Below are positions 1,916-37,867 of a DNA stretch of 38,548 nt, in pieces. Made by a program: the position numbers and the translations under genes. The first letter of the stretch is position 1, and every line of letters starts with the position of its first letter. The notes beneath the pieces are model-generated. The model made no database searches. It saw only the letters and a list, made by a program, of their open reading frames with translations, and was not told the origin of the DNA. This DNA comes from a virus (taxonomy: Duplodnaviria; Caudoviricetes), in the IMG/VR virus record IMGVR_UViG_3300005326_000034, positions 1 to 38,548 of that record. One strand, given 5' to 3'.

Positions 1916-1943
1916 GGGAGACACGCACCCCACGCTTGGGGTC
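1916..1943 (+). promoter_or_regulatory. GAGACAC-box promoter, leaderless for the 1944 gene
   Basis: GGGAGACAC-gcaccc-CACGCT-7 nt-ATG; one of 8 identically spaced copies. Confidence 0.7.
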
Positions 1944-2207
1944 ATGAAGCCATTCAAGCGCCAGCCTGAGCCCAAGCCCGAGACGCCGCGTTCCTATCTC
2001 GAGGAGATGGAGCGGTTCCGCGTCGTCGTGCACATGCGCGACGGGTCGGTCGAGGGCACGCTCTCGCACCTGTATCCCGACTGCCTGGTGCTCACCCATG
2101 CGTTCTACCTCGAACAGGGCGCCCGGACCGTGATCGACGGCGAGGCCGTGATCGAGCGCGTGAAGGTCGCCTGGATCCAGCGCATCGGCATCCCTGAGGG
2201 GGCGTAA
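1944..2207 (+). CDS. Small Sm/LSm-fold-like protein between terL and portal
   Basis: RVVVHMRDGSVEGTL..LYPDCLVLTHA...GEAVIERVKVAWIQ resembles the Sm1/Sm2 pattern. Confidence 0.6.
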   Translation: MKPFKRQPEPKPETPRSYLEEMERFRVVVHMRDGSVEGTLSHLYPDCLVLTHAFYLEQGARTVIDGEAVIERVKVAWIQRIGIPEGA

Positions 2208-2208
2208 G

Positions 2209-3579
2209 ATGTCTCCGATCACGCTGCGCAGCGAGGGCACCTACCGTGCCGTGGCGCTTGGCGGAGGCTTCGAGCGGCACATCGGTCCGTCTCCGGGCTA
2301 CATCCCGCTGCACGGCGTCCAGGAGATCACAGACCCGATCACCGGCAAGACGCTCACCGTCAGCCGCTCGGCGACCTACGACCTCATGTATCGCCGTCAG
2401 CCGGCGTTCTACGCCGTGGCGACGCTGCTCATCAAGGCGTTCGCCCGGCTGCCCGCGAAAACGTACATAGAGACGGCCGACTCTCGCGCGCGGTCGAAAT
2501 CAGCCCCGACCGCCAAGTTGCTTCGGACGCCGTATCGGCGTGGATCCGCGTGGGACTGGAAGGTGCGCCTCGGCTACGACCTCATGGTCCACGGCCGTCA
2601 CCTCCAGGTGAAGTACCGCCCTAACCCGGCGTCCCCGCCCACCGGCCTCATCCCCGTGCCCTGGAGCCGGGTCGAGCGTGTCGAAGACGACCTCGGCCTG
2701 CTCGGCTTCTTCGTGCACATGGGATCCGAGCGGATCCCCGTGCCGCTTGACGACGCGGTCTACTACGAGCTCCCCGGCGGCGTCGCGCCGTCTGAGGTCC
2801 TGCGCCGAACGCTCGCGCTCGAAGACGCAGCCACGACGTTCCAGGGATCCGCGCTGGAAAACGGCGTGACCCCTCGCGCCGCCTTCAGCTTCAAGAACCC
2901 GATCATGCCCCAGGACCGGCCGTTCGTCCGCGGCGAGATCGAGAAGCTCTACATGGGGCCCGACAAGGCCGCGAACTTCGCGATCCTTTCAGGTGATGCC
3001 ACGGTCTCCACGATCGGCGTCTCCGCCGTCGACCTCGCGCTCATGGAGCAGCGCAAGCTCTCCCGCGAGGAGTGCTGCGCCGTCTACAACGTGAGTCCCG
3101 CGATCGTCGGATGGGGGAGCGACAAGGCGATCAGCTACGCGAGCGCCAAGGAGTTCCACGGAAGCCTCTACGTCGACGCGCTCGGTCCCGTGATCACGAT
3201 GGTCGAGGAGACCATGCAGGCGCAGCTGATCGACGTCGAGGGCGCCTGGGACGGCCTGTACGTCGAGTTCGACCTCGACGAGCTCCTGCGCCCGGACATG
3301 ACGGAGCGCATGCGCGCCTACCTCCTGGGCCAGCAGTCCTCGACGTTCACCATCGACGACCGCCGGGCGGCCGAGAACAAGCCGGCGTTCAAGATCGCCG
3401 GCGTCACCGACGTCCCGCTGATCCCCGTGAACATGCGCCCGGCCGCCGCCGGGATGTTCGACAACGGAGAGCCGCCCCCCGTTCCCGGTGACCCCGGCGC
3501 GAGTGGCCTTATCGACCAGCTCGTCTTAGACACGGTGCGCGGCGGCTCTCGCCCAGACCCTGAGGAAGGTGGCCTCTGA
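2209..3579 (+). CDS. Portal protein (HK97 family)
   Basis: LEQRKLSREECCAVYNVSPAIVG, FDLDELLRPD, TIDDRRAAEN motifs; position after terL. Confidence 0.93.
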   Translation: MSPITLRSEGTYRAVALGGGFERHIGPSPGYIPLHGVQEITDPITGKTLTVSRSATYDLMYRRQPAFYAVATLLIKAFARLPAKTYIETADSRARSKSAPTAKLLRTPYRRGSAWDWKVRLGYDLMVHGRHLQVKYRPNPASPPTGLIPVPWSRVERVEDDLGLLGFFVHMGSERIPVPLDDAVYYELPGGVAPSEVLRRTLALEDAATTFQGSALENGVTPRAAFSFKNPIMPQDRPFVRGEIEKLYMGPDKAANFAILSGDATVSTIGVSAVDLALMEQRKLSREECCAVYNVSPAIVGWGSDKAISYASAKEFHGSLYVDALGPVITMVEETMQAQLIDVEGAWDGLYVEFDLDELLRPDMTERMRAYLLGQQSSTFTIDDRRAAENKPAFKIAGVTDVPLIPVNMRPAAAGMFDNGEPPPVPGDPGASGLIDQLVLDTVRGGSRPDPEEGGL

Positions 3580-4328
3580 TGAAGCCCAAGAACAAGCCGT
3601 GGTACCAGATCAAGGCCGCCGCCGAGAAGAGCGGTCCGGCTCAGGTCTACATCTACGAAGACATCGATCCGTACTGGGGGACCAACGCCCACACGTTCGC
3701 GATCGAGCTCGACGCCCTTGACGTCGAGGAGATCGACGTCCACATCAACTCCGCCGGCGGCAACATCTTCGAGGGCTACGCGATCGCGAACGCGATCCGC
3801 AACCACAAGGCGACGGTGACCGCGTACATCGACGGTCTTGCGGCCTCGATCGCGAGCGTCATCGCGCTCGCGGCCGACAAGGTGGTCATCGCTCCCGCCG
3901 CCATGTTCATGTACCACGAGGCCACCGGCGCGGCCTACCGCGCCAAGGCGAGCGACATGCGCCGCGTCGCCGCGATCATCGATCAGATGAACGAGACGAT
4001 CGCGCAGATCTACGCGGACAAGACCGGCAAGACCACCACGGAGATCCGCGCGGAGATGGCCGCCGAGACCTGGCTCAAGGCTCCGGCCGCGATCGAGCAG
4101 GGCTTCTGTGACGAGCTCGGCCCGGCGATCGCGGTCGCCGCATGCGCCGACGCCGAGACCTTCCAGGCGCTCGGCTTCAGCCACGTCCCGGATGAACTCT
4201 TGGCCGTGATCGAGCCGAGCGCACCGGAGGCTCCCGAGCCACCCGCGCCAGACGCGGGAGACACGGCCCCCACCATCGATAACGAGAGGCTGGCTGCGCA
4301 GCTGCGCACCCGATTCAAGGAGGTATAG
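3579..4328 (+). CDS. Prohead maturation protease, ClpP-like
   Basis: HINSAGGNIFEG, IDGLAASIASVIA, MYHEA, ETWL..AIEQGFCD. Confidence 0.95.
   Translation: MKPKNKPWYQIKAAAEKSGPAQVYIYEDIDPYWGTNAHTFAIELDALDVEEIDVHINSAGGNIFEGYAIANAIRNHKATVTAYIDGLAASIASVIALAADKVVIAPAAMFMYHEATGAAYRAKASDMRRVAAIIDQMNETIAQIYADKTGKTTTEIRAEMAAETWLKAPAAIEQGFCDELGPAIAVAACADAETFQALGFSHVPDELLAVIEPSAPEAPEPPAPDAGDTAPTIDNERLAAQLRTRFKEV
4256..4276 (+). promoter_or_regulatory. GAGACAC-box promoter for the major capsid gene (inside protease 3' end)
   Basis: GGGAGACAC-ggcccc-CACCAT, about 55 nt before the capsid ATG. Confidence 0.65.
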
Positions 4329-4329
4329 C

Positions 4330-5607
4330 ATGGCACCCCGATCCGATGCCGCGCGCGCGGCCCAGGCCGAGCTCGCACGGAAGCGTGGAGAGCACGCTTC
4401 CCTGGTCAAGCAGAACCAGGCCATGATGGATGCCGCGGTGGCAGAGGGTTCCGTCACCTCCGCGGACTTCATGGACAAGTACGACGAGGCCACCAAGGTC
4501 TCCGACACCATGGCCGAGGACATCCAGCGCCTCGACCTCTTCACCCGTCAGCACCTCGCTGACACCGAGAACGGTGGCGTGGATCCCATGGCGCCGTTCC
4601 AGCCCGCCGGCGAGGCGGCACCGAACGCCCGTGATTCATGGGCCAAGCGGTTCCGCAACTCCTCGGCCATGCAGTACCTGACGGACCGCGGGGTCACTAA
4701 GACCGACAGCGCGGAGATCGGCACGTCCCCGGCCGCGCTGCTCGCCGATCGTGACGAGTTCCGCAACACGCTGCTCACCACGAGCGGCTACCCGGGCCGT
4801 GAGGACCGCCGCGACGGCATCATCCCGCTGCCACTCGCGCCGCTCACACTGCTCGACCTGATCACGGTCTCCACGACCGATCAGGAGACGGTGGAGTGGG
4901 TCTTCGAGAAGACCTTCACCAACACCGCAGCAGAGACCGGCGAGGGCACCGCCGCCCCCGAGGGCGTTCTCGAGTTCGACTCGCGAACCGCACTCGTGAA
5001 GGACATCCCGTTCTTCTTGCCGGCCACCCGCCGGATCCTGCGCGACCCCGCCCGCCTGGACAGCTACATCAACCAGCGCCTGGGCTACGGCGTGCGCGCA
5101 CGCCTGCAGAACCAGGTCGTCGGCGGCAACGGTGCCGGCCAGAACCTGACCGGCATCCTCAACCAGCTCGGCATCCTGTCGCAGCCTCGCGGCACCGCGT
5201 CGCTCCCTGACGTCGTGCACTTCGCGATGACCGCGATCCGTGTCGCCTCCAACGGCATGTACGAGCCGCGCGTCATGCTCGCCCACCCCTACGACGAAGA
5301 GCGCCTGGTGCTCTCCAAGTCGACCGGGACGAACGAGTACCTCTTCGGTGGGCCGACCAAGCCGGCCGCGAACACCGCGTGGGGCATGCTCGTGGTCCCG
5401 CACGTGTCCGTCCCCGAGGGCAACCCGATCGTGTGCGACCCGGCGCTCGCCGAGCTCGCGATCCGCGAGGGTCTAACCCTGTCGATGAGCGACTCGCACG
5501 GTACGTACTTCACCGAGCGCAAGGTCGCCTTCCTGGCAGCGATCTCAGCCGCGTTCGGCCTGATCGACCCCAGCGGCTTCTGCGAGATCACGAACTTCGA
5601 CTCGTGA
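4330..5607 (+). CDS. Major capsid protein (HK97 fold, N-terminal delta-like domain)
   Basis: AAETGEGTAAPE, ATRRILRD, QVVGGNGAGQNLTGILN, FTERKVAFLA; RBS aaggagg. Confidence 0.95.
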   Translation: MAPRSDAARAAQAELARKRGEHASLVKQNQAMMDAAVAEGSVTSADFMDKYDEATKVSDTMAEDIQRLDLFTRQHLADTENGGVDPMAPFQPAGEAAPNARDSWAKRFRNSSAMQYLTDRGVTKTDSAEIGTSPAALLADRDEFRNTLLTTSGYPGREDRRDGIIPLPLAPLTLLDLITVSTTDQETVEWVFEKTFTNTAAETGEGTAAPEGVLEFDSRTALVKDIPFFLPATRRILRDPARLDSYINQRLGYGVRARLQNQVVGGNGAGQNLTGILNQLGILSQPRGTASLPDVVHFAMTAIRVASNGMYEPRVMLAHPYDEERLVLSKSTGTNEYLFGGPTKPAANTAWGMLVVPHVSVPEGNPIVCDPALAELAIREGLTLSMSDSHGTYFTERKVAFLAAISAAFGLIDPSGFCEITNFDS

Positions 5608-5636
5608 TCGTAAGGCTCGGCCGACTGTAGACCGAT

Positions 5637-5671
5637 GACGGGCCCGGCCTCATGTGCCGGGCCCGTTCTCT
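5637..5671 (+). terminator. Intrinsic terminator-like hairpin after capsid gene
   Basis: gacgggcccggc-ctcatgt-gccgggcccgtt, 12-bp stem followed by ctct. Confidence 0.75.
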
Positions 5672-5689
5672 ACGCGAGAGGGGACCGCC

Positions 5690-6670
5690 GTGCCGCGCGT
5701 GCTCTACCTGCTCCGCTCCGAGAACCGCGCCGGATCCGCGTACAAGTACCTCGAGATGTTCCAGCGCGTGCTGCCGGGGCAGATCGTCGCCGGCGAGGAG
5801 ACCGCGCTCAACCACGCGCTCCGGCAAGGCTGCGACGTCGCGGTCGTGCGGGGCGACATGTCGACTCACTTCGACCTGTGCCGCCGGCAGAAGACCCCGT
5901 ACCTCCTGATAGAGCAGGACGTCGCGACGATGCGCGGGGCCCGGTGCCCGGCCGAACGCTCCATGATCGAGGGCGCACTCGGCGTGCTGTTCAACAGCCG
6001 CGGCACGCGCGACTACTGCGTCGACCGCTACCGGATCAGGCATCACGAGGTCGTACCGCTCCGCCCGCTCGCCGAGCAGCTCGACTTCGAGCCGAGGACC
6101 AAGCTCGAGGGCCGCACGATGGTCTACGCCGGCGGCCTGGTCTCGTGGCGACACCGCCGGCAGCCGTGGGGCTACCGGGCGTACCACGACATCTTCGCGC
6201 GCATCATGGCCCACGGGTGGGAGATGCACGTCTACCCCGGCCGCGACACGCGACAGACCATCATCGACGAGTACACAGAGCTCGGCTGCACCGTCCACGA
6301 CTCCGTGCCCGAGGCGGTCCTACCGCGCGAGCTGAGCCGCTACAGCGCAGGCCTGCAGGCGTACAACCTCACGGACGTGCCGGGCCCCACTGCACGCTAC
6401 GTGGCCGCGTGCGCCCCGAACAAGACGTACCTGTACCTCGCTGCCGGGATCCCCACGGTGGGCTTCAGCCCCGGCGGGGCGGGCGAGGTCTATGACGGCC
6501 GCTGGGGCGTCGTGGTGGAGAACCTCCAGGACCTCGAGACGATAGAGCTCTCGCCGGTGCGCGCCGCCGATCGCCGGGCCGAGGTCATGGACCACGATCT
6601 GCCGGCGTTCGAGCGCCTCGCGGCGATCGTGGGAGACACCGAGCGCACAGTCGTATCACGGGCGCAGTAG
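5690..6670 (+). CDS. Glycosyltransferase, GT-B/GT4-like
   Basis: GTG start after gagagggg; VLFNS, MVYAGGL, VPEAVLPRELSRYSAGL and PNKTYLYLAAGIPTV match the GT4-type PnK..eY.aaG.Pv motif. Confidence 0.8.
   Translation: MPRVLYLLRSENRAGSAYKYLEMFQRVLPGQIVAGEETALNHALRQGCDVAVVRGDMSTHFDLCRRQKTPYLLIEQDVATMRGARCPAERSMIEGALGVLFNSRGTRDYCVDRYRIRHHEVVPLRPLAEQLDFEPRTKLEGRTMVYAGGLVSWRHRRQPWGYRAYHDIFARIMAHGWEMHVYPGRDTRQTIIDEYTELGCTVHDSVPEAVLPRELSRYSAGLQAYNLTDVPGPTARYVAACAPNKTYLYLAAGIPTVGFSPGGAGEVYDGRWGVVVENLQDLETIELSPVRAADRRAEVMDHDLPAFERLAAIVGDTERTVVSRAQ
6631..6651 (+). promoter_or_regulatory. GAGACAC-box promoter for the 6697 gene (inside GT 3' end)
   Basis: GGGAGACAC-cgagcg-CACAGT. Confidence 0.62.
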
Positions 6671-6696
6671 CCCGCCATTGATCAAGGAGGGACCAG

Positions 6697-7257: not shown

Positions 7258-7274
7258 CCGACGCAAACCGCAGA

Positions 7275-7308
7275 GGGGCGGCGCTGGGGTCATCCCGGTG
7301 GCCGCCCC
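7275..7308 (+). terminator. GC-rich hairpin (terminator or mRNA stabiliser) after the 6697 gene
   Basis: ggggcggc-gctggg-gtcat-cccggt-g-gccgcccc; no U-tract. Confidence 0.5.
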
Positions 7309-7328
7309 GCGTGCGAGAGGGTGATAGC

Positions 7329-7604
7329 GTGGCGCTTCCCACCACAGGCCGGATGACGCTCCGGGTCGCGGACGCCGAGACGCGCTTCGAGTGCGGTCCC
7401 GGCGTCGCCGTGACCTGGCACCGGTCGATGCTCTCTCCGTGCGATGCCGCGCCGGACGGCGTAGAGCAGGCCACGGTGGAGTCATCCCCGGGGTGGGTCG
7501 AGGTCACGTACCCGGAGCCGCACGTCTGCCGGATCGAGATGTGCGACGAGCCTGTCCCCGAGCCGACTCTCGGCGACCTCCCTGCGCTCATGGGCGTGAT
7601 CTAG
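7329..7604 (+). CDS. Hypothetical protein
   Basis: GTG after gagaggg; MALPTTGRMTLRVADAETRF...; stop abuts next start. Confidence 0.65.
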   Translation: MALPTTGRMTLRVADAETRFECGPGVAVTWHRSMLSPCDAAPDGVEQATVESSPGWVEVTYPEPHVCRIEMCDEPVPEPTLGDLPALMGVI

Positions 7605-11774: not shown

Positions 11775-11801
11775 GGGAGACACGGAAGCGAGGATGAGGT
11801 C
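11775..11801 (+). promoter_or_regulatory. GAGACAC-box promoter, possibly leaderless, for small gene plus tail tube
   Basis: GGGAGACAC-ggaagc-GAGGAT-6 nt-ATG(11802). Confidence 0.7.
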
Positions 11802-16680: not shown

Positions 16681-18324
16681 ATGAGCAAGTACATCGTCTA
16701 TCCCAACGGGAGCATCACGACCAGAGGCGCGGCCGCGACGATCTACGGCGGTTCGGCCTCGGTCCATGCCGCGCTTGGCGATGCGTCCGACGCCACGTAC
16801 GTGAAGGCGGCCGCGAAGCTCGGCCTGGTCGCTGACTCCGAGGTCACCACCCCCGCGATCGTCGCCGGCGAGCGCATCGTCGCCGTGTGCGCCGGCATGC
16901 GGCTGAGTAAGCCCTCCGCGTCGACCGGCCGCGCGAAGATGTACGCGTCGCTCCTGGTTGCCGGGGCGGTACTGCAGTCTGCGAGCGGGGTCATACTCAA
17001 CACGACCTCATCGATCACGAACCGGGAAGCCGCACCGTACGCGGTGGCCGAGGCCTCCTGGCTCGCACCCGACGGCTCGGAGTGGACCACGGCGCACATG
17101 GCCAACCTGATCGTGTCACTGTGGGACACGAACGACGTGCCATCGGCGAGCGAGTTCCTGTTCTACCGTTCGTGGATCTCGGTGTTCACCCACAAGCCCG
17201 CCGTCGTCTCTGTCGAGGGCCCGGTCGGTAACATCACCACGGTCTCTCAGCCTCAAGCCGAGGTCGACATCTCCACCGTGAACGATGACTGGCTCTCGAG
17301 CCTCACCTCAGGCGGCGACCTCGAGGTCAAGTGGTTCACGGCCGCTCAGTACGGAGCTCCGGGCTTCGATCCCGAGACGGCGACACCGTTCGCGAGCGGC
17401 ACGGCGCGCTACGACAATCCCAACTACGTCGACGGCGTCACGCCGGGCACCGTGACCGTCTTCGTCACGCCCGACAAGGCGCTCACCAACGACACGACGT
17501 TTCGGGCATACGCTCGAGCGAGCCGTGACGTCTTCTCCGGACAGAGCGCGTTCTGGGGGGTGTGGGACTACAGCGAGTTCACGATGGACCTCACGCCGAG
17601 TGCCACGCCGACACTGACCGCGACCGCTGTCACCGCAACGGGCACCATCGACGTCGAGGTCTCCGCTGCCGCGACCGCCGGGCACTCGGCGCCCGCCTTC
17701 GAGATCGAGCGCACGGAAGACGGCGTGACCTGGTCGGCCCTGCGCGGGTGCACCGCGCTTTCCGCCACCTTCGACGACACCTACACCATCCACGATCGCG
17801 AGATGAGCCGCGGCGTAGAGACCACCTACCGGGCGCGCGTGGTCACCACACTCGCCGGCGGCCGCGTCGCCTCGGAGTGGTCCGCCACCGACGCGGCGAC
17901 ACTCGCCGTCGACGGCTGGTGGCTCCGGATGCCCCAGCTCGCCGAGACACCGGCTGTCGAGATCGCGCACATGCACATCTCGGGCATGCCGGCGTCGCAG
18001 CGCAACGAGGACGTCGGCATCTTCCGGGTAAAGGGCTTCGACCTGCCGGTCATCGTCGGCGGTGACTTCAGCGGATGGGACGGTTCGTACAGCGTCTTCT
18101 GCGACAGCGCCTCCGCGTTCGACGCGCTCGTGGCGCTCCTCGATCGCCGGGGCCCGGTGTGGGTGGAGAGTCCCTTCGGCGACTCGAAGTGGGTGCGCTT
18201 CACCACGTCGGCCGAGGCCGTCAAGCGAGGCTCCACGCTCGCATCCGTGCGTCGCGCGGTCGAGCTCTCGTACGTCGAGTGCGAAGCCGCCGTCGGCGAG
18301 ACCATCATCGTCGACGTGACGTAA
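16681..18324 (+). CDS. Minor tail protein (FN3-like repeats plus Dit-like C-terminus)
   Basis: Directly after TMP; FEIERTEDGVTW, TYRARV, SEWS; C-terminal PVWVESPFGD...ELSYVEC. Confidence 0.75.
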   Translation: MSKYIVYPNGSITTRGAAATIYGGSASVHAALGDASDATYVKAAAKLGLVADSEVTTPAIVAGERIVAVCAGMRLSKPSASTGRAKMYASLLVAGAVLQSASGVILNTTSSITNREAAPYAVAEASWLAPDGSEWTTAHMANLIVSLWDTNDVPSASEFLFYRSWISVFTHKPAVVSVEGPVGNITTVSQPQAEVDISTVNDDWLSSLTSGGDLEVKWFTAAQYGAPGFDPETATPFASGTARYDNPNYVDGVTPGTVTVFVTPDKALTNDTTFRAYARASRDVFSGQSAFWGVWDYSEFTMDLTPSATPTLTATAVTATGTIDVEVSAAATAGHSAPAFEIERTEDGVTWSALRGCTALSATFDDTYTIHDREMSRGVETTYRARVVTTLAGGRVASEWSATDAATLAVDGWWLRMPQLAETPAVEIAHMHISGMPASQRNEDVGIFRVKGFDLPVIVGGDFSGWDGSYSVFCDSASAFDALVALLDRRGPVWVESPFGDSKWVRFTTSAEAVKRGSTLASVRRAVELSYVECEAAVGETIIVDVT

Positions 18325-20077: not shown

Positions 20078-20096
20078 GAGACACGCGGGGCAAGGT
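20076..20096 (+). promoter_or_regulatory. GAGACAC-box promoter for lysis genes
   Basis: GAGAGACAC-gcgggg-CAAGGT, 36 nt before the endolysin ATG. Confidence 0.62.
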
Positions 20097-21315: not shown

Positions 21316-21741
21316 TTACGGGTGGACGAACTTGTCGATCCGCTTGCCGTCTCCGTCGTAGACCACGACCTCTTGGACTGCGGGGAACGCCGAGAGCACG
21401 GCTCCCGCGACACCCTTGGCGTACATCCGGTCCGGGCCGTCCAGGTACGTGTAGACGGACACGTTGGCGTCGTACGTGACGATGTCCTTGATGTAGTCGG
21501 AGACCCCCGCCTCAGCGAAGACCGCGCTCACCTCGGAGACGCTCACCACCGGCGGCGCTTGCGCGGTGTCCTCTCCGCTCCCGCACGACATACACCCGAC
21601 GAAGCCCACGGCCATGAGCAGGAAAAGCACCAGGCACGTGACGGCGCTAGAGCTCGTTGCCGGGGCGGCTGCCTTCGCACAATGCGGGCAGGCGTCGTAG
21701 TTGTCCTCGTACTCCTTGTCGCACTTCGCGCAGCGTTTCAT
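21316..21741 (-). CDS. Zinc-ribbon plus TM membrane protein (possible lysogenic conversion/superinfection exclusion)
   Basis: RBS gaggaggtg; MKRCAKC...CPHC, hydrophobic helix VTCLVLFLLMAVGFVG, extracytoplasmic domain. Confidence 0.75.
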   Translation of the reverse strand: MKRCAKCDKEYEDNYDACPHCAKAAAPATSSSAVTCLVLFLLMAVGFVGCMSCGSGEDTAQAPPVVSVSEVSAVFAEAGVSDYIKDIVTYDANVSVYTYLDGPDRMYAKGVAGAVLSAFPAVQEVVVYDGDGKRIDKFVHP

Positions 21742-21792
21742 GCGCACCTCCTCGCGCCGTTCTTCTCCGCCGGCGCTCGAGTTCCTGCTTCC

Positions 21793-21813
21793 GGGAGACA
21801 CAACGCTGAGGCT
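21793..21813 (+). promoter_or_regulatory. GAGACAC-box promoter pointing into attP/antisense to int
   Basis: GGGAGACAC-aacgct-GAGGCT; no + strand gene follows. Confidence 0.55.
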
Positions 21814-21905
21814 GACACAGGGGGGCGAGGGGCTTCCCGCGAGGCACTTGGCGCGAGATGGCGCGCGCCGGTGCCTCTTTGCCCTGGTAGGGTCCATACG
21901 CGCAA

Positions 21906-21948: not shown

Positions 21949-21987
21949 CGCTACTCAACGAGTCATACGTCTAACAAAGCGGCTCAT

Positions 21988-21996
21988 AATCTACCA
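21988..21996 (-). promoter_or_regulatory. Candidate extended -10 promoter upstream of tRNA half
   Basis: Minus strand TGgTAGATT about 40 nt upstream of the tRNA 5' end, in an AT-richer patch. Confidence 0.45.
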
Positions 21997-22019: not shown

Positions 22020-23132
22020 CTACTTGGCGCGAGATGGCGCGTCGGAGCACTTGGCGCGAGATGGCGCGCGCCTGAGCGTCTCCGCCAGATCCGCCGCGTT
22101 CTCGTCCGCCGACCTACCCGGGCGCAGGTAGTAGCGGTCCGTGACGGTGATCGTCGAGTGCCCCAGCCGTCGCGACACGACCACGGCATCCACGCCGGCC
22201 GCGAGGAGCAGCGTCGCGTGCGTATGTCGCAGGTCTCTGAGCGGGATCGGCGGCAACTCGAGTTCCTCGAGGCGCGCCTTGAAGCGACGCGAGATCGCGG
22301 TGGGCCCGAACGCCACGACGGGGCCGAGGCCGCGATACGGCCTGAGCGCGTCACAGGCCCACTGGGGGAGCGTGACGGTCCGGTCGCTCGTCTCTGACTT
22401 CGGAGCCTCGGTCCAGCGTTCTCCGTGGCTCTCGTGCATCCCTCGCGCGATCGTCACTGTGCGGGCCTTGAGGTCCAGGTCGGTCCACAGGAGGCCGGCG
22501 ACCTCGGAGCGACGCAAGCCGGCGGCGAGCGCGAGCACGACGACCGGCTCAAGAGGATGCCCGGCGAACCCGTCGAGCACAGCGTTGGCTTCTTCGATCG
22601 AGAGGATCCGCGGCTCGTGCCGCGGCACAGACGGGGCCATGTGCTTGTTCGCGGGGTTCTTCTCGATCATCCCCCACGTGACGGCCTGCTCGAGCGCCCC
22701 GCGCAGGATCCGGAAGGCATGGAGGCGCGTCTGCGCACCGACCCCGCGTCGGGCCAAGTCGGCCAACCACTTGTCGAGGATGTAGCTCGACAGCGCGGTC
22801 AACTTCACGTGTCCGATCAGCGGGTAGGCGTGGGTCTTCATCTTGTCCGCGTACCCCTCGTGCGTCCGCCGGCGGACCTTCGGCGGCTCCATCGCCGGAA
22901 GCCACATATCCTCGAGGTAAGCGCGCACCGTCAGGTTCTTCGCGGTAGGCGCCACGGCCCCGACCTCGAGGAGCATCCGCGCGAGCTCGCGCTCGGCCTC
23001 GTTCCTCGTGCCGTGAAACGTACGATCCAGACGCCGGCGGCGCCGGGTCACAGGATCCACCCCCGCGGATACCTGGATGCGCCAGACGCCCCGCGAGGTC
23101 TCTCTGATCGACCCGAGCTGACGGCGGCTCAT
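22020..23132 (-). CDS. int: Tyrosine integrase
   Basis: GLRRSE, PKS, LRDLRHTHATLL, SRRLGHS, DRYY; N-terminal arm-binding GSIRE..GVWRIQV. Confidence 0.96.
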   Translation of the reverse strand: MSRRQLGSIRETSRGVWRIQVSAGVDPVTRRRRRLDRTFHGTRNEAERELARMLLEVGAVAPTAKNLTVRAYLEDMWLPAMEPPKVRRRTHEGYADKMKTHAYPLIGHVKLTALSSYILDKWLADLARRGVGAQTRLHAFRILRGALEQAVTWGMIEKNPANKHMAPSVPRHEPRILSIEEANAVLDGFAGHPLEPVVVLALAAGLRRSEVAGLLWTDLDLKARTVTIARGMHESHGERWTEAPKSETSDRTVTLPQWACDALRPYRGLGPVVAFGPTAISRRFKARLEELELPPIPLRDLRHTHATLLLAAGVDAVVVSRRLGHSTITVTDRYYLRPGRSADENAADLAETLRRAPSRAKCSDAPSRAK

Positions 23133-23630: not shown

Positions 23631-23660
23631 TTGACGAAGATTCTAGACTGCGCCTAATCT
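23631..23660 (+). promoter_or_regulatory. Early rightward sigma-A promoter (PR)
   Basis: TTGACG-18 nt-TAATCT upstream of cro. Confidence 0.7.
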
Positions 23661-23732
23661 ACGAGACACAGGCACAACAAGCAAGGCCAGACGCGGGTAA
23701 GTCTGCGCGGAGCCTAGTCTCAGGAGGTCGGG

Positions 23733-24160: not shown

Positions 24161-24669
24161 CCACTCGACGACTTCCCTGGTTCCGGATGTACACGGAATC
24201 GCGCAATGACTCGAAGCTCGACGCCCTCGCCGATCGCGAGTTCCGCATCTGGCACAAGTTGCTGTGTTACTCGGCGGAATCAGAGCCTCGCGGCGTGGTC
24301 GACTACTCCGACCCGGAATTCACGGCGCTCGAGATCCGCGTCGACGCTGACGATCTCGACGCTGCGATCAAGCGCATGACGCGCGTCCGCCTGGTCGAGG
24401 TCGAAGGTCAGTTCGTCTTCTTCCCCTCGTTCGCTGAGCGCCAGTACGACAAGCCATCAGATCACCCGGGCCCGGTGCGCGAGCGGAAGAGAAAGAGCCG
24501 GGCCGCGAAGAGCCCGAGCGGCGGCGCGGGTCACACACAGTCACGCGGCGTCACGCCCTTGTCACGCGGCGTCACGCATAGAGAAGAAGAGATTAGAGAA
24601 GAGACAGATAAGAAAGACCTTGGCGTTTTGGAGCCTGTGGATAACTCGGCTGCGGCGTGGTCGATGTGA
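24157..24669 (+). CDS. Phage replication initiator (replisome organiser-like)
   Basis: PWFRMYTE..NDSKL, IWHKLLC, RERKRKSR, internal iteron-coded SRGVT repeats. Confidence 0.8.
   Translation: MTTRRLPWFRMYTESRNDSKLDALADREFRIWHKLLCYSAESEPRGVVDYSDPEFTALEIRVDADDLDAAIKRMTRVRLVEVEGQFVFFPSFAERQYDKPSDHPGPVRERKRKSRAAKSPSGGAGHTQSRGVTPLSRGVTHREEEIREETDKKDLGVLEPVDNSAAAWSM
24530..24644 (+). other. Putative replication origin: phased GTCAC iterons, purine-rich tract, DnaA box
   Basis: GTCAC at 24530/24540/24550/24561/24571; agagaagaagagattagagaagagacagataagaaaga; TGTGGATAA at 24636-24644. Confidence 0.75.
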
Positions 24670-25229
24670 CCCATCACCGCCGCGATTGGTCGACGTCTGA
24701 GGTCCAGTACCTCATCAAGCACTCCGAAGAGGGCGCCCCAGCGATCGCGTCTGCCCTCGACAGATCGGTCAAGTCGGTCAAAGACGCGGCCTCGAGGTAT
24801 CGCATCTCGCTGCGCCGCCCTGGTGAGTGCCGGGGGCTGCTCCTCACCCAGCCCAGGCGCACATCATGGCGCGATCGCGGCCGTCTCCGTGAAGCCGTGG
24901 TCCTTGAGGGGTTCGACCTCGCCGAGGCGATCTCCAGGATCCGCGCGGAGAAAGCCGCGCCGCTCTGCCCGAAGTGCGGGCTCCGCGCAGCGACCAGGCG
25001 GACCACGGGCTATTGCGACATCTGTCACTACAACGCGCTCGCCGACAAGCATCGCGAGCAGCCGGCAATCGACAAGGCCCGCCGGGACTACCGCGCTTGC
25101 AAGAAGGCAGCGGGCCGGCGCGTCGAGTGTGCCGAGTGTCACCAGGAGTACTCACCCAGAAAAGACGAAGAGGGCCGCAAGAGCGACCGGAACCTGTGTC
25201 CGGAGTGCCGCGGCGGTGAGTCCTCATGA
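24657..25229 (+). CDS. Myb/SANT-like HTH plus zinc-finger protein
   Basis: WSTSEVQYL...IASALDRSVKSVKDAASR; four CxxC pairs. Confidence 0.7.
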   Translation: MVDVTHHRRDWSTSEVQYLIKHSEEGAPAIASALDRSVKSVKDAASRYRISLRRPGECRGLLLTQPRRTSWRDRGRLREAVVLEGFDLAEAISRIRAEKAAPLCPKCGLRAATRRTTGYCDICHYNALADKHREQPAIDKARRDYRACKKAAGRRVECAECHQEYSPRKDEEGRKSDRNLCPECRGGESS

Positions 25230-27405: not shown

Positions 27406-27710
27406 CAGCACCTTTCTGCATCAGCACCGGCTGCACGAACGAGGCGACCTGCGTCCCGAGGATCGTCGTGCCGGCGCAGGGGTGGCCCATCGACTCACAC
27501 GAGCCCCTCAGGCTGGTGCTCGCGGTCGAGGTATGCGACGAGCACTTCGACAAGCTCAAGATCGACGACCTCGCCCCCGCCGGACTCAAACGCGGGGTCC
27601 GCGACGTCGTCGCGATCCTTCTCCGAGACAAGTGCCCGCCGGATTGGGAGCGAGCCTTCATCGAGAAGGTCTCGCTCGACAGCGACGAGTACCGAGCTGG
27701 TGCGCGATGA
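27402..27710 (+). CDS. Hypothetical Cys-containing protein
   Basis: GTG overlapping previous stop; FCISTGCTNEA...VCDEH. Confidence 0.6.
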   Translation: MTAPFCISTGCTNEATCVPRIVVPAQGWPIDSHEPLRLVLAVEVCDEHFDKLKIDDLAPAGLKRGVRDVVAILLRDKCPPDWERAFIEKVSLDSDEYRAGAR

Positions 27711-27970
27711 AGACCGCCTGGCCTGCCGAGGTCACCGCCAAAGACGTCAAGGCGACGGCCGCCGTCGCGCGGTTCGCGATGGAGCATCACTACGCACCGT
27801 CGACACGCGACCTCATGGAGGCCACCGGCGTGACGTCGACGGCGACGGTGCACGAGCGCCTCAAGCGCCTCCAGGCCCATGGGCTCATCACCCGGATACC
27901 CAACACCCACCGGTCGATCCGCCTCACCGCCAAGGGCGTCGAGCTCGTCTGTGGGAGGTGCCCGCGATGA
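27707..27970 (+). CDS. LexA N-terminal-like winged-HTH protein
   Basis: HYAPSTRDLMEATGVTSTATVHERLKRLQAHGLITR...RSIRL. Confidence 0.82.
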   Translation: MKTAWPAEVTAKDVKATAAVARFAMEHHYAPSTRDLMEATGVTSTATVHERLKRLQAHGLITRIPNTHRSIRLTAKGVELVCGRCPR

Positions 27971-32350: not shown

Positions 32351-32355
32351 CAGCC

Positions 32356-33468
32356 ATGGTCTATCTGCCGGGCGTCCGGGTCAGACACCAGTGCCACCAG
32401 TGCGTCAACTACAACCCCGAGCCGGGCCGCTCCTCAGCGTACTGCCCGATCGAGGACCGGCGCGTCTCGGGCACGGCCGCCATCTGCCTCAGCCCGGCTG
32501 CACGGATCCGTACCTCTGCAACCCCCACAGCGCCCGTGGAGACCCCGCAGGCGAGAAAGGAGGCACTGGTGAGTGCCATGAAGCGCAAGCCGCGAGAGGG
32601 CGAATGGACGCCCGAGCAGGACCAGGCGCTCAGAGACCACGCGCATCTCGGCAAGGAGGGATGTGCGGCTAAGGTGGGCAAGACGCCGAGCGCGATACTC
32701 AACCGCGCGCACACCCTCGGCGTGAGCCTCAAGAAGCGTCCGGCGCCGGAGAGCACGCCCGTCGCGCCCAACCCGGCGCCCGCGCCGCCGACGTCAGATC
32801 CCGCCGCATGGACGGACTCAGACCATGGGTCACTGCACGGGATCATCGACGAATGCTCGACACCCGCAACAAACGACGACGAAACCGACGACACTCGCAC
32901 ACCGCACCACGCGGGCGTCGAAGGGCTCGGAGAGGTGCAGACGACGGACAACGGCGACGGCACGTACACGCACGAACTGACACCCGAGTTCACCCCCGAC
33001 GAACCGGCGCCGAAGGCGTCGCCGTCGTGCCGCGGTTTCGGCTGTGTACGCGAGGCGACCGGCGAGGACGGCCTATGCGACGAGTGCAGGAGCGTGCTGG
33101 ACGGGGACCTCTTCGCGCTGAGGGAGTGTCGCGTGTGCGGCTGCACCGACGCGGAGGCCTGCGAGGACATCGACGGCTTAGCGTGTCACTGGGTCGAGGA
33201 GGATCTCTGCAGCGAGTGCGCCGGCGACAAGGTCAGCACCGAGACCACGTTCATCCCGACGCCCATGGCGCTCCTCGAGACGCTGCTCTCGGGCGGCGGG
33301 CCCGTCACGATCGTCATCGACAAGAGCGTCAAGCCAGCTGTACCGAGAGAGCACACGCTCACGCTCCAGCTCGTCGACACACTCCTCGAGGTCGCGCTCC
33401 TCTCCACCAACACGCGACGATACCTCGAGGCGGTCCACCAGGCCCGCGATCTCCTGAGGGGGCTCTAG
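32356..33468 (+). CDS. Multi-domain protein with Myb-like HTH and Cys clusters
   Basis: EWTPEQDQALRDH...VGKTPSAILNRAHTLGV; CRVCGCTD..AC....CHWVEEDLCSEC. Confidence 0.7.
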   Translation: MVYLPGVRVRHQCHQCVNYNPEPGRSSAYCPIEDRRVSGTAAICLSPAARIRTSATPTAPVETPQARKEALVSAMKRKPREGEWTPEQDQALRDHAHLGKEGCAAKVGKTPSAILNRAHTLGVSLKKRPAPESTPVAPNPAPAPPTSDPAAWTDSDHGSLHGIIDECSTPATNDDETDDTRTPHHAGVEGLGEVQTTDNGDGTYTHELTPEFTPDEPAPKASPSCRGFGCVREATGEDGLCDECRSVLDGDLFALRECRVCGCTDAEACEDIDGLACHWVEEDLCSECAGDKVSTETTFIPTPMALLETLLSGGGPVTIVIDKSVKPAVPREHTLTLQLVDTLLEVALLSTNTRRYLEAVHQARDLLRGL

Positions 33469-33472
33469 AGCC

Positions 33473-33949
33473 ATGGGAGACGGGTACGACGTCCATCCCC
33501 ACGCTGCGCGCAGGTGGTGCGAGCGCATCCAGCACATCGACAAGCCGTCGCGCGAACAAGTGCAGGCCGCACTGCCGCTCGTGCTCGCCGCGATCACCGC
33601 AGCGCGTCCGACACGTCGACGCCAGTCCAACCACTACGACAAGCGCCGGATCTTCGTGACCGACAAAGGCGTGCACCTGGTCGTGTCGGCCGGGACCGTC
33701 ATAACGACGCTCGACCCCGAGTGGACCGTCTTTCACTGCCCGTGCTGCCACTGCGTGCGCAAGCGCGCAGACGCGATCAAGGCAGGGTCATCGCTGATCG
33801 AGCACAACCCCGACCGGCAGATGATCCACCCCGCCGGCGAGTTCGCCTCGAGGCCACGCTCGCCCAAGCCACGTAAAAAGAGTGCGGCCGAGGCACGCTG
33901 CCGCGCACGGCGCCGCCGGCGCCGACGCGACGACCACGAGAGAGGGTGA
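33473..33949 (+). CDS. Hypothetical protein, possible RelE-like/DUF4258-like fold
   Basis: VHPHAARRWCERI ... LVVSAGTVITTL pattern. Confidence 0.55.
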   Translation: MGDGYDVHPHAARRWCERIQHIDKPSREQVQAALPLVLAAITAARPTRRRQSNHYDKRRIFVTDKGVHLVVSAGTVITTLDPEWTVFHCPCCHCVRKRADAIKAGSSLIEHNPDRQMIHPAGEFASRPRSPKPRKKSAAEARCRARRRRRRRDDHERG

Positions 33950-33956
33950 TGCACTC

Positions 33957-34361
33957 ATGACCGAGACCGAGACCGCGGGCTGCACGGCAGCCAATCCGCC
34001 CGGTATCAAGAGGTACACGCTGGCCGAGTGGCAAGCTGAGTTCGAGCACCTGCTCGGTGTGAAAGATCCATCGGCCGACGATGTGCGCAGGATCACATTC
34101 GTGTGTCCGCGCTGTGAGGAGACGCACTCTGTCGGCGAGTTCGCCGATCACCTCGAGGCGCAAGGCAAGCTCTCGGGTTGGGACCCGAGCGACGCGGCGC
34201 AGAAGTGCTACCACCGTTTCGTCGCCGACGGCGTCTGCGACTGGTGCGCCTTCGGGCTGTTCAAGACACTCGGCAAGGGCGCGGTGATCGTGCACCCGGA
34301 CGGCCACGAGACGGACGTCTTCGCGTTTGGCGCGCCCCTCCCGCCGGCGGTGGCCCGATGA
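33957..34361 (+). CDS. VVA0879-like conserved phage protein
   Basis: FVCPRC, QKCYHRF, CDWCAFGLF, VFAF. Confidence 0.7.
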   Translation: MTETETAGCTAANPPGIKRYTLAEWQAEFEHLLGVKDPSADDVRRITFVCPRCEETHSVGEFADHLEAQGKLSGWDPSDAAQKCYHRFVADGVCDWCAFGLFKTLGKGAVIVHPDGHETDVFAFGAPLPPAVAR

Positions 34362-34669
34362 AGCCCCCGTGTACCGCACCGTGCGACCAGCGCGCGATGC
34401 TCGAGCTCGCGATCGGGGCGATGGTCAACCAGCCGTGCCCGTTCGAGATCGGCGCGCCATTCTCAGGGTCGCTCCACGTCAGCTTCGGCGACGAAGAGTG
34501 CTACGCGCTCCACGCCGCCGCTGAAGGTGACTTCTGCTTCGCCCCGCACTGCCGCGCGTGCATCACCGAGTACCTCGAGGAGGCGATCGAGCCGGATCCG
34601 GCGATCGTGGTTGGAGGTGACGTCTCGTGGGTTGTCAGAGGCACCCCTACATGCACGCCGACGGCCTGA
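34358..34669 (+). CDS. Hypothetical Cys-rich protein
   Basis: ATGA overlap with previous gene. Confidence 0.55.
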   Translation: MKPPCTAPCDQRAMLELAIGAMVNQPCPFEIGAPFSGSLHVSFGDEECYALHAAAEGDFCFAPHCRACITEYLEEAIEPDPAIVVGGDVSWVVRGTPTCTPTA

Positions 34670-34821
34670 TCTACGCCGACGCAGACTCGTGCTCGGGCTG
34701 CTGCCTCAACCACTCGCAGGACTGCGACGGTTGGCGAAAGGCCAAGAAGCGCAACCGCCGCACGGCGAGCATGAAGCCGAAACGGAAGCCGGCCGACGTG
34801 GCCACAACAACGAAGGAGTGA
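34627..34821 (+). CDS. Small Cys-rich hypothetical protein (start uncertain)
   Basis: Fills gap; CSGCC...C; ends with RBS aaggag. Confidence 0.45.
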   Translation: MGCQRHPYMHADGLIYADADSCSGCCLNHSQDCDGWRKAKKRNRRTASMKPKRKPADVATTTKE

Positions 34822-34826
34822 ACCAC

Positions 34827-35144
34827 ATGAAGAAGCTCGTGCTCGTCCTCATCCTGACCGGCCTGGTCGTCCTCCTGGCAGGAGTGGTCGCACACGCGAC
34901 TGAGCCGCCCGTCATGACAGCAGAGATCCAAGTCTATCCCTCGGTGCGCGTAGTGACCGCTACGGGCTTTCAGGGCATCCAAGCGTACAAGAGGCTGGAC
35001 GGCGCGGTCATCGTCTCCTGGTACGGCGCACCGTACACCGTCGACGCATCCGGAGCGAAGCTGCTCTCGTGTGTCCGGGTCGGCAACAAGACGACAGCGA
35101 CCGTCGGCCCGATGGGCTCGTACTTCTACCTCAGGTCGCGGTAG
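34827..35144 (+). CDS. Secreted protein with signal peptide
   Basis: MKKLVLVLILTGLVVLLAGVVAHA-TEPP. Confidence 0.7.
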   Translation: MKKLVLVLILTGLVVLLAGVVAHATEPPVMTAEIQVYPSVRVVTATGFQGIQAYKRLDGAVIVSWYGAPYTVDASGAKLLSCVRVGNKTTATVGPMGSYFYLRSR

Positions 35145-35146
35145 CG

Positions 35147-35947
35147 GTGGAGATCACCCTCAAAGAGGCCCTCGTGGTGATCCTCCTCGGGCTCGTGGCC
35201 ACAGCCGTCATTGCGGTCGCCTGGTTGCGGCCACGCATCACGCGGATCGTCGGCAAAGCCGTAGTGGCAACTGCCGAGGAGCTGAACCTCGGGGTCGGCG
35301 AACACTATACTACTGCGCCCCACGACCTGAGCTACACAGACGCGCAGCGGGTCTACGAGTGGGCGATGACCCACAATGTCACCCCTCTGGAAGCCGCGTA
35401 CGTTCTCGACCTCATCCCCCGCGCCGATGTCCCCGACTGCTCCGAGTGTGGCAACCGCAACGATCTAGTGAACGCGGCGTGGCGCATCGTGGATGAAGCG
35501 CAGCACGAGAGCGAGGAGAGCGACTTCATGCTCATCGAGCCGAAGTACGTTGATGCGCTTGAGGAGATACTGGGCGAGATAACCCCCGACTCCGGCCACT
35601 ACCTAGAGGACAGCGCCCACTACATCCCCCGCGCCGAGCATGACGCCGCTATCGCTGCCGAGCGGGAGAGGGTGGCGGCGTTGGCGGAGGCGGCAGAGTA
35701 CGCAATCCAGGCGCTCATCTGGACGCAGGACTATGTGACGCCGGAGGTTCTCCCTGACATCGCGGGCTGGTCGCACTATGACGCAAGACTGCGCCTCCGC
35801 GCCGCGCTGGACGCCATGTGTCCTCTCAATGCGCTCAACTCGCAGATGGCCGAGGAGAACGTAGCCATCGCCGCCGAGGTACTGCCGGAGTGGGATGAGA
35901 GTGGGGCGGGCGCGACCTCCGGAGGTGTACAGACGTGGCTGAGATGA
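35147..35947 (+). CDS. Hypothetical mosaic protein with N-terminal TM
   Basis: TM helix then acidic domains; open frame in operon. Confidence 0.6.
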   Translation: MEITLKEALVVILLGLVATAVIAVAWLRPRITRIVGKAVVATAEELNLGVGEHYTTAPHDLSYTDAQRVYEWAMTHNVTPLEAAYVLDLIPRADVPDCSECGNRNDLVNAAWRIVDEAQHESEESDFMLIEPKYVDALEEILGEITPDSGHYLEDSAHYIPRAEHDAAIAAERERVAALAEAAEYAIQALIWTQDYVTPEVLPDIAGWSHYDARLRLRAALDAMCPLNALNSQMAEENVAIAAEVLPEWDESGAGATSGGVQTWLR

Positions 35948-36744
35948 TAGGTCCAGCATCGGCCACCCACACCGAAGCCACGCTCACCGAGGCGATCAAG
36001 AAGACGTGGCCGTCCGGTGTCGATCGCCCGCATCACATCGTCGCGGTCCAGGTCAACAACGGCGCGGGCTTCTCGTTCGGCCGCACGCTTGACGCGATCG
36101 TCTTCAACACATGGCCGAGCGAAGGCCTGACGCTTCATGGACTCGAGATCAAGTGCTCTCGGTCCGACCTCCGGCGCGAGCTCCAGGACACGCGTAAGTT
36201 CGCCGAGTTCGCGCCGTACCTCGATCACTTCTCGATCGTCGCCCCCAAGGAGATCGTGAGCAAGCTGGAGATCCCGGACAAGTGGGGCCTCTACCACCCG
36301 ACGGACGACGGACGGCTCAGGGCTGCACGGAAGCCGCTCATGCTCCACACCGAAGGCAGGCGGGAGCAGATGGACCGCTCGCTTGCCGCCGCCTTCGCCC
36401 GCGCTCTCGTGCAGCGATCGCTCGACGGGTCGTTCGCACGGGACGAATACGCCCGCGGTTACGCGGCGGGAGAGAGCCGCACCGCCGAAGAGGTGGCGCG
36501 GGCGGAACAGAATGCCGAGACGCTGAGGCAGGCAATCGCTCAGTTCGAAGAAGAGAGCGGGGTGCGGATCGACAGGTGGAATGGGGCACGCATCGGAGGG
36601 GCGGTCAAGCTGGTGCTGGACGGCAACGTGCTGCACCATCGCCTGAGCCACGCTGGAAGTCTACGCGAGCTTGGCGAAAGGATGATCAAGCTCGCTGGTG
36701 AGTTCGAGGTCCTATCAGCAGCACTGGAGGCGACCGATGGCTGA
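35935..36744 (+). CDS. PD-(D/E)XK-type (MmcB-like) nuclease domain protein
   Basis: RTLDAI...WPS.GL..HGLEIKCSRSDLRRELQD..K, EIPDKWGL. Confidence 0.75.
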   Translation: MAEMIGPASATHTEATLTEAIKKTWPSGVDRPHHIVAVQVNNGAGFSFGRTLDAIVFNTWPSEGLTLHGLEIKCSRSDLRRELQDTRKFAEFAPYLDHFSIVAPKEIVSKLEIPDKWGLYHPTDDGRLRAARKPLMLHTEGRREQMDRSLAAAFARALVQRSLDGSFARDEYARGYAAGESRTAEEVARAEQNAETLRQAIAQFEEESGVRIDRWNGARIGGAVKLVLDGNVLHHRLSHAGSLRELGERMIKLAGEFEVLSAALEATDG

Positions 36745-36937
36745 GTCCACGCTCTTCGAGCGCACCGACACCGACAGGTTCGCCGCCGTGCGCCTGTTCA
36801 TCACCCAAGAGATCAAGCAGCGCCGCCATATGCTCGTGCGTCACCCGGAGCAGGGCGAGTACTGGAGCGGCCGCGTGCAGCAGGCGGAGTCCGCGCTTGC
36901 GGACCTCGAGGCGATGGAGAGCGGGGTGAAGGCATGA
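36737..36937 (+). CDS. Hypothetical protein
   Basis: RBS ggagg; MAESTLFERTD... Confidence 0.6.
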   Translation: MAESTLFERTDTDRFAAVRLFITQEIKQRRHMLVRHPEQGEYWSGRVQQAESALADLEAMESGVKA

Positions 36938-37380
36938 GCTCCTCACTGGAGTACAGAGAGGCGCCTCTTAGACGACGGCTCCACACGCTTCCATTGTCAG
37001 GTGAACTGCACGTCCGTACCGATATCGTCACCTGCGAAATGCGCTGCGTCATCGCCCAGGCGATAGCGATCTGGCGTGGTGACCATGCGCCCGTCGAGGT
37101 ACACCAGGCCGCGATGCAGATCCGGCGCAGACTCCTCTTAGGCCAGGCCGATGACTATATGTTGCGCGCCATTCTACAGACCCACATGGTCGACCAGGTC
37201 ATGACGCGTTGTGCAGGTCGGCTGCGACACTTTTCGGCGATCGATGCGTACGGCATCTGGTGGATCGCTCCTGATGAGGGGCGCGCTGCGGCGCTGGCTG
37301 TGGCGTACAAGGAGCAATTCGACCGCCGCGCGGAGTACCTGGCGCTTACGTCGGGTGGGCTCACTGAGGTGAAGGCATGA
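36934..37380 (+). CDS. Hypothetical protein flanked by 15-bp direct repeats
   Basis: ATGA overlaps at both ends; more A/T-ending codons. Confidence 0.55.
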   Translation: MSSSLEYREAPLRRRLHTLPLSGELHVRTDIVTCEMRCVIAQAIAIWRGDHAPVEVHQAAMQIRRRLLLGQADDYMLRAILQTHMVDQVMTRCAGRLRHFSAIDAYGIWWIAPDEGRAAALAVAYKEQFDRRAEYLALTSGGLTEVKA

Positions 37381-37640
37381 GCGCCCCCTGCCCTCGCTGC
37401 GGTCGAACGGACTACGAGCTATTGCTGACGAAGTCGGGCAATCAGATTTACGTACATCCATTAAGGTCGGACGGCCGGATCGCAGTCTCGTCCGTCTGCT
37501 TCTCGGCGGAGGCGCTCGCCGAGAGCTTACTCCTGCTCCGCAGAAGAGCTGCCATGGCGCTGCACCTGGAGCACCAGCAGACTCTCGGCCTTAGGGCTCA
37601 GCCGCCCTTGACGCCGTTTCGGGGGGTGAAGCTCAACTGA
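37377..37640 (+). CDS. Hypothetical zinc-ribbon protein
   Basis: MSAPCPRCG; last gene before non-coding gap. Confidence 0.5.
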   Translation: MSAPCPRCGRTDYELLLTKSGNQIYVHPLRSDGRIAVSSVCFSAEALAESLLLLRRRAAMALHLEHQQTLGLRAQPPLTPFRGVKLN

Positions 37641-37840
37641 CACACGCTACGCCCCTGCACTGACATAAGCATCGACCCTCCTAGAAAACCCCAGGTCAGA
37701 GCATGCATAGGGGTAGGGGGGTCGATTCTTTCCGCCGTGCGCCCCGAAACCTCGACAGCCTGCGCCAGAGACACTCGCCCGAAATTGGAGATTCACGGGG
37801 CTATCCGGTGTGACGTTTTCTATGCACTTTGTTACGAATC
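37641..37840. other. Non-coding region likely containing the packaging (cos) site/genome end
   Basis: Non-coding gap between the early region and the terminase unit; contains AAAACCCCAGGTCAGA and GGGGTAGGGGGGTC. Confidence 0.5.
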
Positions 37841-37867
37841 GGGAGACACGCCCCGCACGCTCAGTCC
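37766..37867 (+). promoter_or_regulatory. Tandem GAGACAC-box promoters for the packaging operon
   Basis: CAGAGACAC-tcgccc-GAAATT (37766-37786) and GGGAGACAC-gccccg-CACGCT-6 nt-ATG (37841-37868). Confidence 0.68.

Follow-up and report, generated by a model that had tools for sequence, protein, structure and literature searches.

The 38,548-nt stretch of phage DNA studied here (the window; positions 1 to 38,548 of IMG/VR record IMGVR_UViG_3300005326_000034, Caudoviricetes) carries eight plus-strand copies of the motif GAGACAC-N6-nAnnnT. On balance, we favour the view that host RNA polymerase reads these sites as a temperate phage's late promoters, and does so only with the help of two phage proteins, here termed A and B; we are considerably more confident that the reader is phage-coded, whatever its make-up. 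An earlier note, made from the sequence alone, had described a late-promoter class with an activator box near the -10 and proposed as activator the host cell-division regulator WhiA or else a phage factor. The class itself stands, with no -35 and often a leaderless layout, whereas WhiA as its reader does not. The sites are likely to be phage-activated late promoters rather than WhiA sites because the signal recurs in many distant phages together with two small phage genes, A and B, which the note had overlooked; the phage factor that it offered as an alternative is likely to be correct. Judged from sequence, the signal follows phage genes and not the host.

The record is a complete temperate phage with a terminal repeat of 123 nt and 67% G+C. 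Its plus strand encodes terminase, portal, Clp protease, an HK97-type capsid, tail and lysis proteins, followed by a 14-kb early operon; integrase and repressor are on the minus strand. The eight sites are as follows.

1918 to 1936, plus strand: promoter-like site; the ATG of a small Sm-like gene (1944) is 7 nt behind, then portal and Clp protease
4258 to 4276, plus strand: promoter-like site within the Clp protease gene, 53 nt ahead of the major capsid gene (4330)
6633 to 6651, plus strand: promoter-like site within open reading frame (ORF) 5654-6670, 45 nt ahead of ORF 6697
11777 to 11795, plus strand: promoter-like site; the ATG of 11802 is 6 nt behind, with the tail tube gene next
20078 to 20096, plus strand: promoter-like site, 36 nt ahead of an NlpC/P60-CHAP gene (likely endolysin)
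21795 to 21813, plus strand: promoter-like site with no late gene behind; directed across the likely attP region towards the end of the integrase gene, to which it runs antisense and which is its presumed target
37768 to 37786, plus strand: the weakest promoter-like site, 81 nt ahead of gene A and next to a probable cos region; absent from the top matches of the matrix described below
37843 to 37861, plus strand: leaderless promoter-like site belonging to gene A, whose ATG is 6 nt behind, with a GTTAC word 12 nt upstream (37831-37835)

All eight previously reported copies were recovered, where 0.23 +/- 0.49 were expected and 0 of 100 shuffles reached eight. In a look-elsewhere control, the best combination of 7-mer, spacer and nAnnnT had p = 4.9e-12, the minimum across 850 fourth-order Markov simulations being 4.7e-8. 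The word GAGACAC occurs ten times on the plus strand and never on the minus strand, and eight of the ten have the hexamer at N6; the other two lie at 17944 (inside a tail gene) and 23663 (immunity region). Several further observations in the note proved correct: the early region is empty of sites (zero between 23.7 and 37.7 kb), two sites are within coding sequence (4258 and 6633), no site has a consensus -35 (16-18 nt upstream, none matches TTGACA at more than 3/6 positions), and at 1918, 11777 and 37843 an ATG follows the hexamer by 7, 6 and 6 nt. Three others are 36-53 nt ahead of a late gene, one is 81 nt ahead of gene A and one (21795) is ahead of no gene. The claim that seven sites precede late units holds for their placement, but the gene directly behind 37843 encodes a 133-aa zinc-finger protein and not terminase. 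The site at 4258 has a counterpart at the equivalent place in the relatives L051, L053, L055, L056 and L116.

When the hexamer is numbered -12 to -7, GAGAC falls at -25 to -21. This layout, a -10 of canonical type without a -35 and with a box at a fixed position in the spacer, is that of sigma-adaptation promoters. A sigma-54 (-24/-12) geometry was rejected by eye, as the GG/GC spacing of that consensus is not there. It is very improbable that the sites serve packaging or repression binding and are not promoters: two of them in coding DNA and one ahead of no gene would suit such a role, but nAnnnT is fixed, the sites keep to a single strand and in dozens of genes a start codon follows at 6-7 nt.

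An untargeted scan of 80 capsid-related loci indicated that the closest relatives have equal spacing with cores GGTGAC, GTGAC or CTGAC. Related phages, where a search for the same motif had been suggested, keep the geometry, but their word is GTGAC/CTGAC and not GAGACAC. Several capsid relatives also have a zinc-finger ORF before terminase, like 37868-38269 of the window, which is gene A. (Exact-word scans of viral contigs returned 16 loci and 56 loci that are chance matches, none with A or a site cluster.) The two candidate genes are these.

37868 to 38269, plus strand: gene A, 133 aa; Cys4 zinc finger with basic helix, then a C-terminal helical hairpin; heads the packaging operon; candidate activator
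24666 to 25229, plus strand: gene B, 187 aa; three-helix helix-turn-helix (HTH) with a Cys4 zinc ribbon and a long helix; part of the early operon; candidate activator and trigger

We used the leaders of the gene A family, which has 99 other proteins at E <= 0.001 and was studied at 8 viral, 54 metagenome and 5 genome-collection loci, to define the signal outside the window. The 84 full-length matches reduced to 59 distinct genes. For 11 of these a leader could not be assigned, owing to cut contigs, second genes or missed starts, and they were not used; the 48 retained have nAnnnT 5-7 nt before an in-frame start, which was the selection criterion, and 47 of these are outside the window. The position of the box was not selected for, and [G/C]TGAC lies at exactly -25 to -21 in 43 of the 47. 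G at -25 and T at -24 are among the strongest columns; positions -20/-19 are GC in 14 leaders, GG in 12, AC in 7, GT in 6, AG in 4, GA in 2 and other in 2. From its sequence context, family A nearly always appears to have the leaderless layout from the signal itself. In five A-bearing genomes unused in deriving the pattern, 7 of 9 leaderless-pattern matches fell at A gene starts.

A matrix trained on 43 leaders from other loci was run on 38 of the 80 capsid-picked loci, with whole records searched. Eight A-positive loci gave 33 late-strand and 2 opposite matches in 132 kb, their own leader left out, versus 7 and 3 in 184 kb for ten near-complete A-negative loci (p = 0.0003). All 30 other loci together gave 23 and 11 in 505 kb, and these include L055, L056 and L060, which are fragments in the signal-positive clade. 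A prophage picked via its integrase alone (G222) carries gene A and eight late-strand sites. The signal is found across records of 49-75% G+C, and the module also turns up with other capsid lineages.

Gene B is the only other non-structural regulator-like ORF common to most signal-positive genomes (5 of 8). It occurs in 6 of 50 records, all signal-positive; one of these, G011, was not part of the training set. Of the 13 records with a completeness of 90% or more, only G012 and G044 have it; they are also the two that have full-length A, and both are signal-positive. Two further near-complete records have weak A-like fingers. B shares a locus with 16 of 58 A genes and is often directly behind A. 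In 121 Thermoleophilia-class genomes, A was found in 8 and B in 4, three of the latter with A. Conversely, G069, which has a divergent A leader, is without B and without the multi-copy signal. Two other early ORFs are DNA-binding candidates, 32356-33468 (a Myb-like stretch) and 27482-27970 (a LexA-type HTH); neither is common to the signal-positive relatives compared.

These data bear directly on WhiA, which on the earlier proposal would bind GACAC at -23 to -19 and couple virion assembly and lysis to division state. In the published studies, WhiA binds GACAC upstream of the -35 and is bridged by WhiB to sigma region 4 (PMC10243135); the distance of its word varies, as does the strand that carries it (PMC10243135, PMC3781837). 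The M. tuberculosis word is GACACGCC, and there WhiA and WhiB are both required (PMC13473873). We consider this reading very unlikely. GACAC is present in all eight window sites, WhiA was found in 5/5 and 2/5 of the host-class genomes examined, and its C-terminal domain, on a flexible linker, is described as reading GACA much as sigma region 4 does (PMC10243135); GACGC, the commonest family flavour (14/47 leaders), is likewise reported to be bound at treZ (PMC3781837). However, only 7/47 leaders have GACAC and 26/47 have neither GACAC nor GACGC, the strong -25 G and -24 T columns fall outside the WhiA word, and the fixed -23 to -19 placement on one strand is unlike the published sites. WhiB was detected in 0/121 and 2/151 incomplete genomes of the two likely host classes, and in none of the 67 scanned phage ORFs. 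Host chromosomes also lack a regulon of this geometry: GACAC-N6-BAnnnT-N6-ATG has 6 matches in five host genomes (12.5 Mb), one of them in a prophage, versus 3 with shifted spacing. As a caution, GACAC near a promoter does not indicate WhiA.

Could some other host regulator, or an alternative sigma factor, read GTGAC, with A and B as targets or bystanders? The leaderless pattern has 59 matches versus 15 in reversed controls across the 121 Thermoleophilia-class genomes, about 5 of them at A genes, and the excess is not fully assignable; some host promoters may therefore share the pattern, a point that also tells against our preferred interpretation. We nonetheless regard a host reader of this kind as improbable, since 75 of the 121 genomes have no match and none has more than 3, the signal spans that broad range of G+C, and a concerted switch to GAGAC in one phage, together with genome-private flavours, fits a phage-coded reader.

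These flavours are seen in the sequence flanking the sites, whose identity is 0.548 within genomes versus 0.400 +/- 0.015 (0/2000 shuffles; 97 sites, 17 genomes), a comparison open to shared ancestry, G+C and chance sites. In the window, GAGAC is present at 8/8 sites and GTGAC at 0; position -24 is T in 45/47 relatives and A at all window sites. At conserved helix positions, the window A protein has K34 where 127/134 family members have R and H37 where 112/134 have A. This link comes from one genome, as a second GAGAC phage was not found among 56 loci.

Which of the two phage proteins is needed is a closer matter. One reading, which we think rather unlikely but take seriously, is that B alone is the activator, its HTH reading the -35-like hexamer, and that A simply comes first among the late genes, perhaps as a packaging helper that binds cos. 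B belongs to the early genes, its three-helix HTH weakly matches Sigma70_r4_2 in 2 of 13 members (best E 6.5e-4), and G069 retains A in the absence of B and signal. A, moreover, sits behind a probable cos, and in the cultured phages Juicebox and Doucette gene 1 encodes this finger in fusion with another domain and is leaderless (L305:219-839, L306:196-690), in genomes where the promoter class is not present. (In Doucette, the annotated start, 316, removes the finger, which is regained if translation begins at an ATG 40 codons earlier.) Against this, the recognition helix of B varies while GTGAC is constant, G222 has its eight sites with a weak B match (E 0.026, zinc-ribbon part), the islands L150, L151 and L157 retain the leader signal with A but no B within up to 10 kb each side, and the base change in the window parallels changes in A.

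The converse, that A alone is an autoregulated late activator, working by a logic like that of Ogr/Delta once read-through out of the early operon has primed it, with B a travelling companion, seems to us unlikely. The core is in 43/47 A leaders, A-only islands and satellites retain it, the basic helix is conserved, and no terminator-like site was found between the early operon and A; but G069 has A without B or signal, and B is found only in signal-positive records. We lean towards A over B as the protein that touches the bases.

A number of observations weigh against the two-protein interpretation. No B is visible at 42 of 58 A loci, many of which are short, and the weak B of G222 and the variable B helix count here too. 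L111 and L115 have three unexplained matrix matches each; G033, which is complete and without A and B, also has three, while G038 and G026 carry weak A-like fingers without the signal. Co-occurrence is partly descent, since 11 of 14 signal-positive capsids form one clade; a quick capsid tree of 41 rows, built without 8 loci for which no capsid match was usable, needs 3 changes, with 1 possible. Finally, gene A could be a mere target of the system.

Gene A matches zf-CGNR in Pfam (E 4e-5), with no informative family name, and its predicted structure is a confident two-part model of finger with basic helix and helical hairpin (mean predicted local distance difference test score 86.9; predicted template modelling score 0.50). 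A fold search gave no PDB match at E <= 0.001; the best Z from VIA was 6.8, for the hairpin only, and there was one unnamed viral match. Gene B matches phrog_323 in PHROGs (E 2.6e-7) and likewise had no PDB match at E <= 0.001, its weak rows being Myb, homeodomain and other HTHs. Full-length A or B was absent from 50,697 records of cultured phages, and a protein search found gene A to be the sole member within the 90% collection.

We propose the following sequence of events for A and B acting together. B, made from the early operon, would trigger the switch. A and B would then bind the box at -25 to -20 and replace the missing -35 contact, with the host housekeeping holoenzyme using nAnnnT as the -10. 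A, predicted to be leaderless from one of the sites, would amplify the switch by positive feedback through its own transcription, and the packaging, head, tail and lysis units would all fire together; the site at 21795 would yield antisense RNA against the integrase gene. The box [G/C]TGAC[A/G] may be viewed as a TTGACA-like -35 word shifted by one helical turn, to 7 nt from the -10 rather than 17. This would put a -35-like word on the DNA face where sigma region 4 would sit, so that the activator is probably wedged between DNA and sigma region 4, a sigma adaptation by analogy with PafBC. Going further, A and B might together form a hitherto undescribed sigma-adaptation device of two proteins, used by actinobacterial phages and satellites, in which the -35-like hexamer is read by a co-evolving zinc finger or sigma-4-like helix (T to A with K34/H37) and satellites with their own A tap into or drive phage-private late programmes; we offer this wider picture tentatively and think it doubtful in full.

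Additional features of the A loci and of the control regions were observed. In a scan of 98 neighbours, gene A heads phage packaging operons but is found as well in islands that bear primase, integrase or capsid genes. In L143, L146, L149, L151, L160 and L163, A and its promoter lie in satellite-like islands without head-tail operons, some beside ATPase/protease or methylase genes; L143, L161, L171 and L185 have two A copies. ParB-like and DNA methylase or Mom-like genes lie between A and terminase, under the late promoter, in L129, L131, L136, L137, L150, L157, L178 and L180. Gene A's own promoter (37831-37847) and many A leaders have a further GTNAC word, some 11-13 nt upstream of the box, which may tune autoregulation or serve cos binding. 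Two rows complete the features.

23663 to 23669, plus strand: unexplained GAGACAC without -10, over the likely start of the early promoter TTGACG-N18-TAATCT (23631-23660)
38256 to 38548, plus strand: 5' part of the small terminase gene, whose start overlaps the end of gene A and which runs on across the 123-nt terminal repeat to 346

The early promoter was identified by eye and is below the threshold of the promoter scanner. At 23631, TTGAC-N8-TAGACT, which has the family geometry, is in the early control region alongside the 23663 word, and the early promoter, too, might be a target of the late activator; the 23663 word was not seen at the early promoters of G222 and G069. Between the lysis genes and integrase, 21316-21742 on the minus strand encodes a small zinc-ribbon/membrane protein, divergent from site 21795, and is a probable lysogeny gene. 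Identical 20-nt repeats occur three times flanking the end of the integrase gene (21846-21865, 22022-22041 and 22049-22068) and are likely arm-type sites; nearby, GCGGCTCATAATC at about 21979-21991 resembles a tRNA CAT anticodon loop, which we take to be a possible attP core. The 338-aa ORF 5654-6670, right behind the capsid gene, has no family match and a coding-like base bias; by eye its sequence resembles a sugar-transfer enzyme.

The host probably belongs to Coriobacteriia or Thermoleophilia. Integrase relatives of 42-46% identity were found in genomes of the Coriobacteriia (3/151) and Thermoleophilia (1/151) class sets. Single-protein searches found no close relative of the phage (best capsid match 44%), and the best cultured terminase match is phiC31 at 29% identity.

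Late-gene switching in temperate actinobacterial phages is known for few cases. We found no description of this promoter class or of A and B in the mostly open-access literature searched. The class and its two candidate activator families, unnamed in Pfam, PHROGs and PDB, belong to phages, prophages and satellites of the poorly cultured Thermoleophilia and Coriobacteriia. Two small genes, a 21-nt promoter and natural specificity variants make a small test system; if our interpretation is right, actinobacteria would gain a compact orthogonal switch, and spacer-bound activation a second example, this one made by a phage.

Phage-coded activation of dispersed late promoters is itself already known, P2 Ogr and phiC31 being examples. 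P2 Ogr sites are inverted repeats near -55. Like the candidate activator A, the P2 Ogr and P4 Delta proteins are small Cys4 zinc-finger phage proteins that serve several late promoters and have satellite copies; the finger in A is different, the site here is at -25 to -20, and no Ogr_Delta match was found among 75 A members (PHROGs) or the window ORFs (Pfam). The P1 Lpa box is near -22. P1, too, has several dispersed late promoters, each with the box immediately before the -10, that a phage protein switches on, as we propose here. Lpa is an RNA-polymerase-binding late activator (PMC8198154). The word, host phylum and protein differ, and A and B have no Lpa family match.

Howe and Smith in 1996 reportedly described phiC31 lytic promoters that depend on a phage function and have conserved blocks near -10 and -18. 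Such actinophage-specific promoters resemble the proposed late class in that dependence; phiC31 has gp12 annotated as a sigma factor, no gene A and no excess of the signal. In the window, as the note had also stated, no sigma factor was matched among 67 scanned ORFs (229 listed), B having a weak region-4-like HTH. The promoter paper on phiC31 is cited in PMC13722658. With Streptomyces WhiA/WhiB the window sites share GACAC, and sigma-4-like reading of GACA may be common chemistry (PMC10243135, PMC3781837, PMC13473873), whereas position, orientation, spacing, the need for WhiB and the conserved word are all unlike. A precedent for the geometry is AfsR, which binds repeats at -40 to -19 (PMC10936776).

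The closest parallel in layout is PafBC of mycobacteria, a solved case of sigma adaptation whose promoter is given as tGTCgg(N10)tA(N3)T with the box at -23 to -28 (PMC8635444). No WYL domain was matched in the 67 scanned phage ORFs. Both systems combine a housekeeping -10, no -35, a spacer box at fixed distance and orientation and, here as a proposal, a two-protein activator (PMC8635444); PafBC is a host HTH-WYL heterodimer that uses TGTCGG with N10, whereas here a [G/C]TGAC-type box with N8 is paired with phage-coded zinc-finger and HTH-zinc-ribbon candidates.

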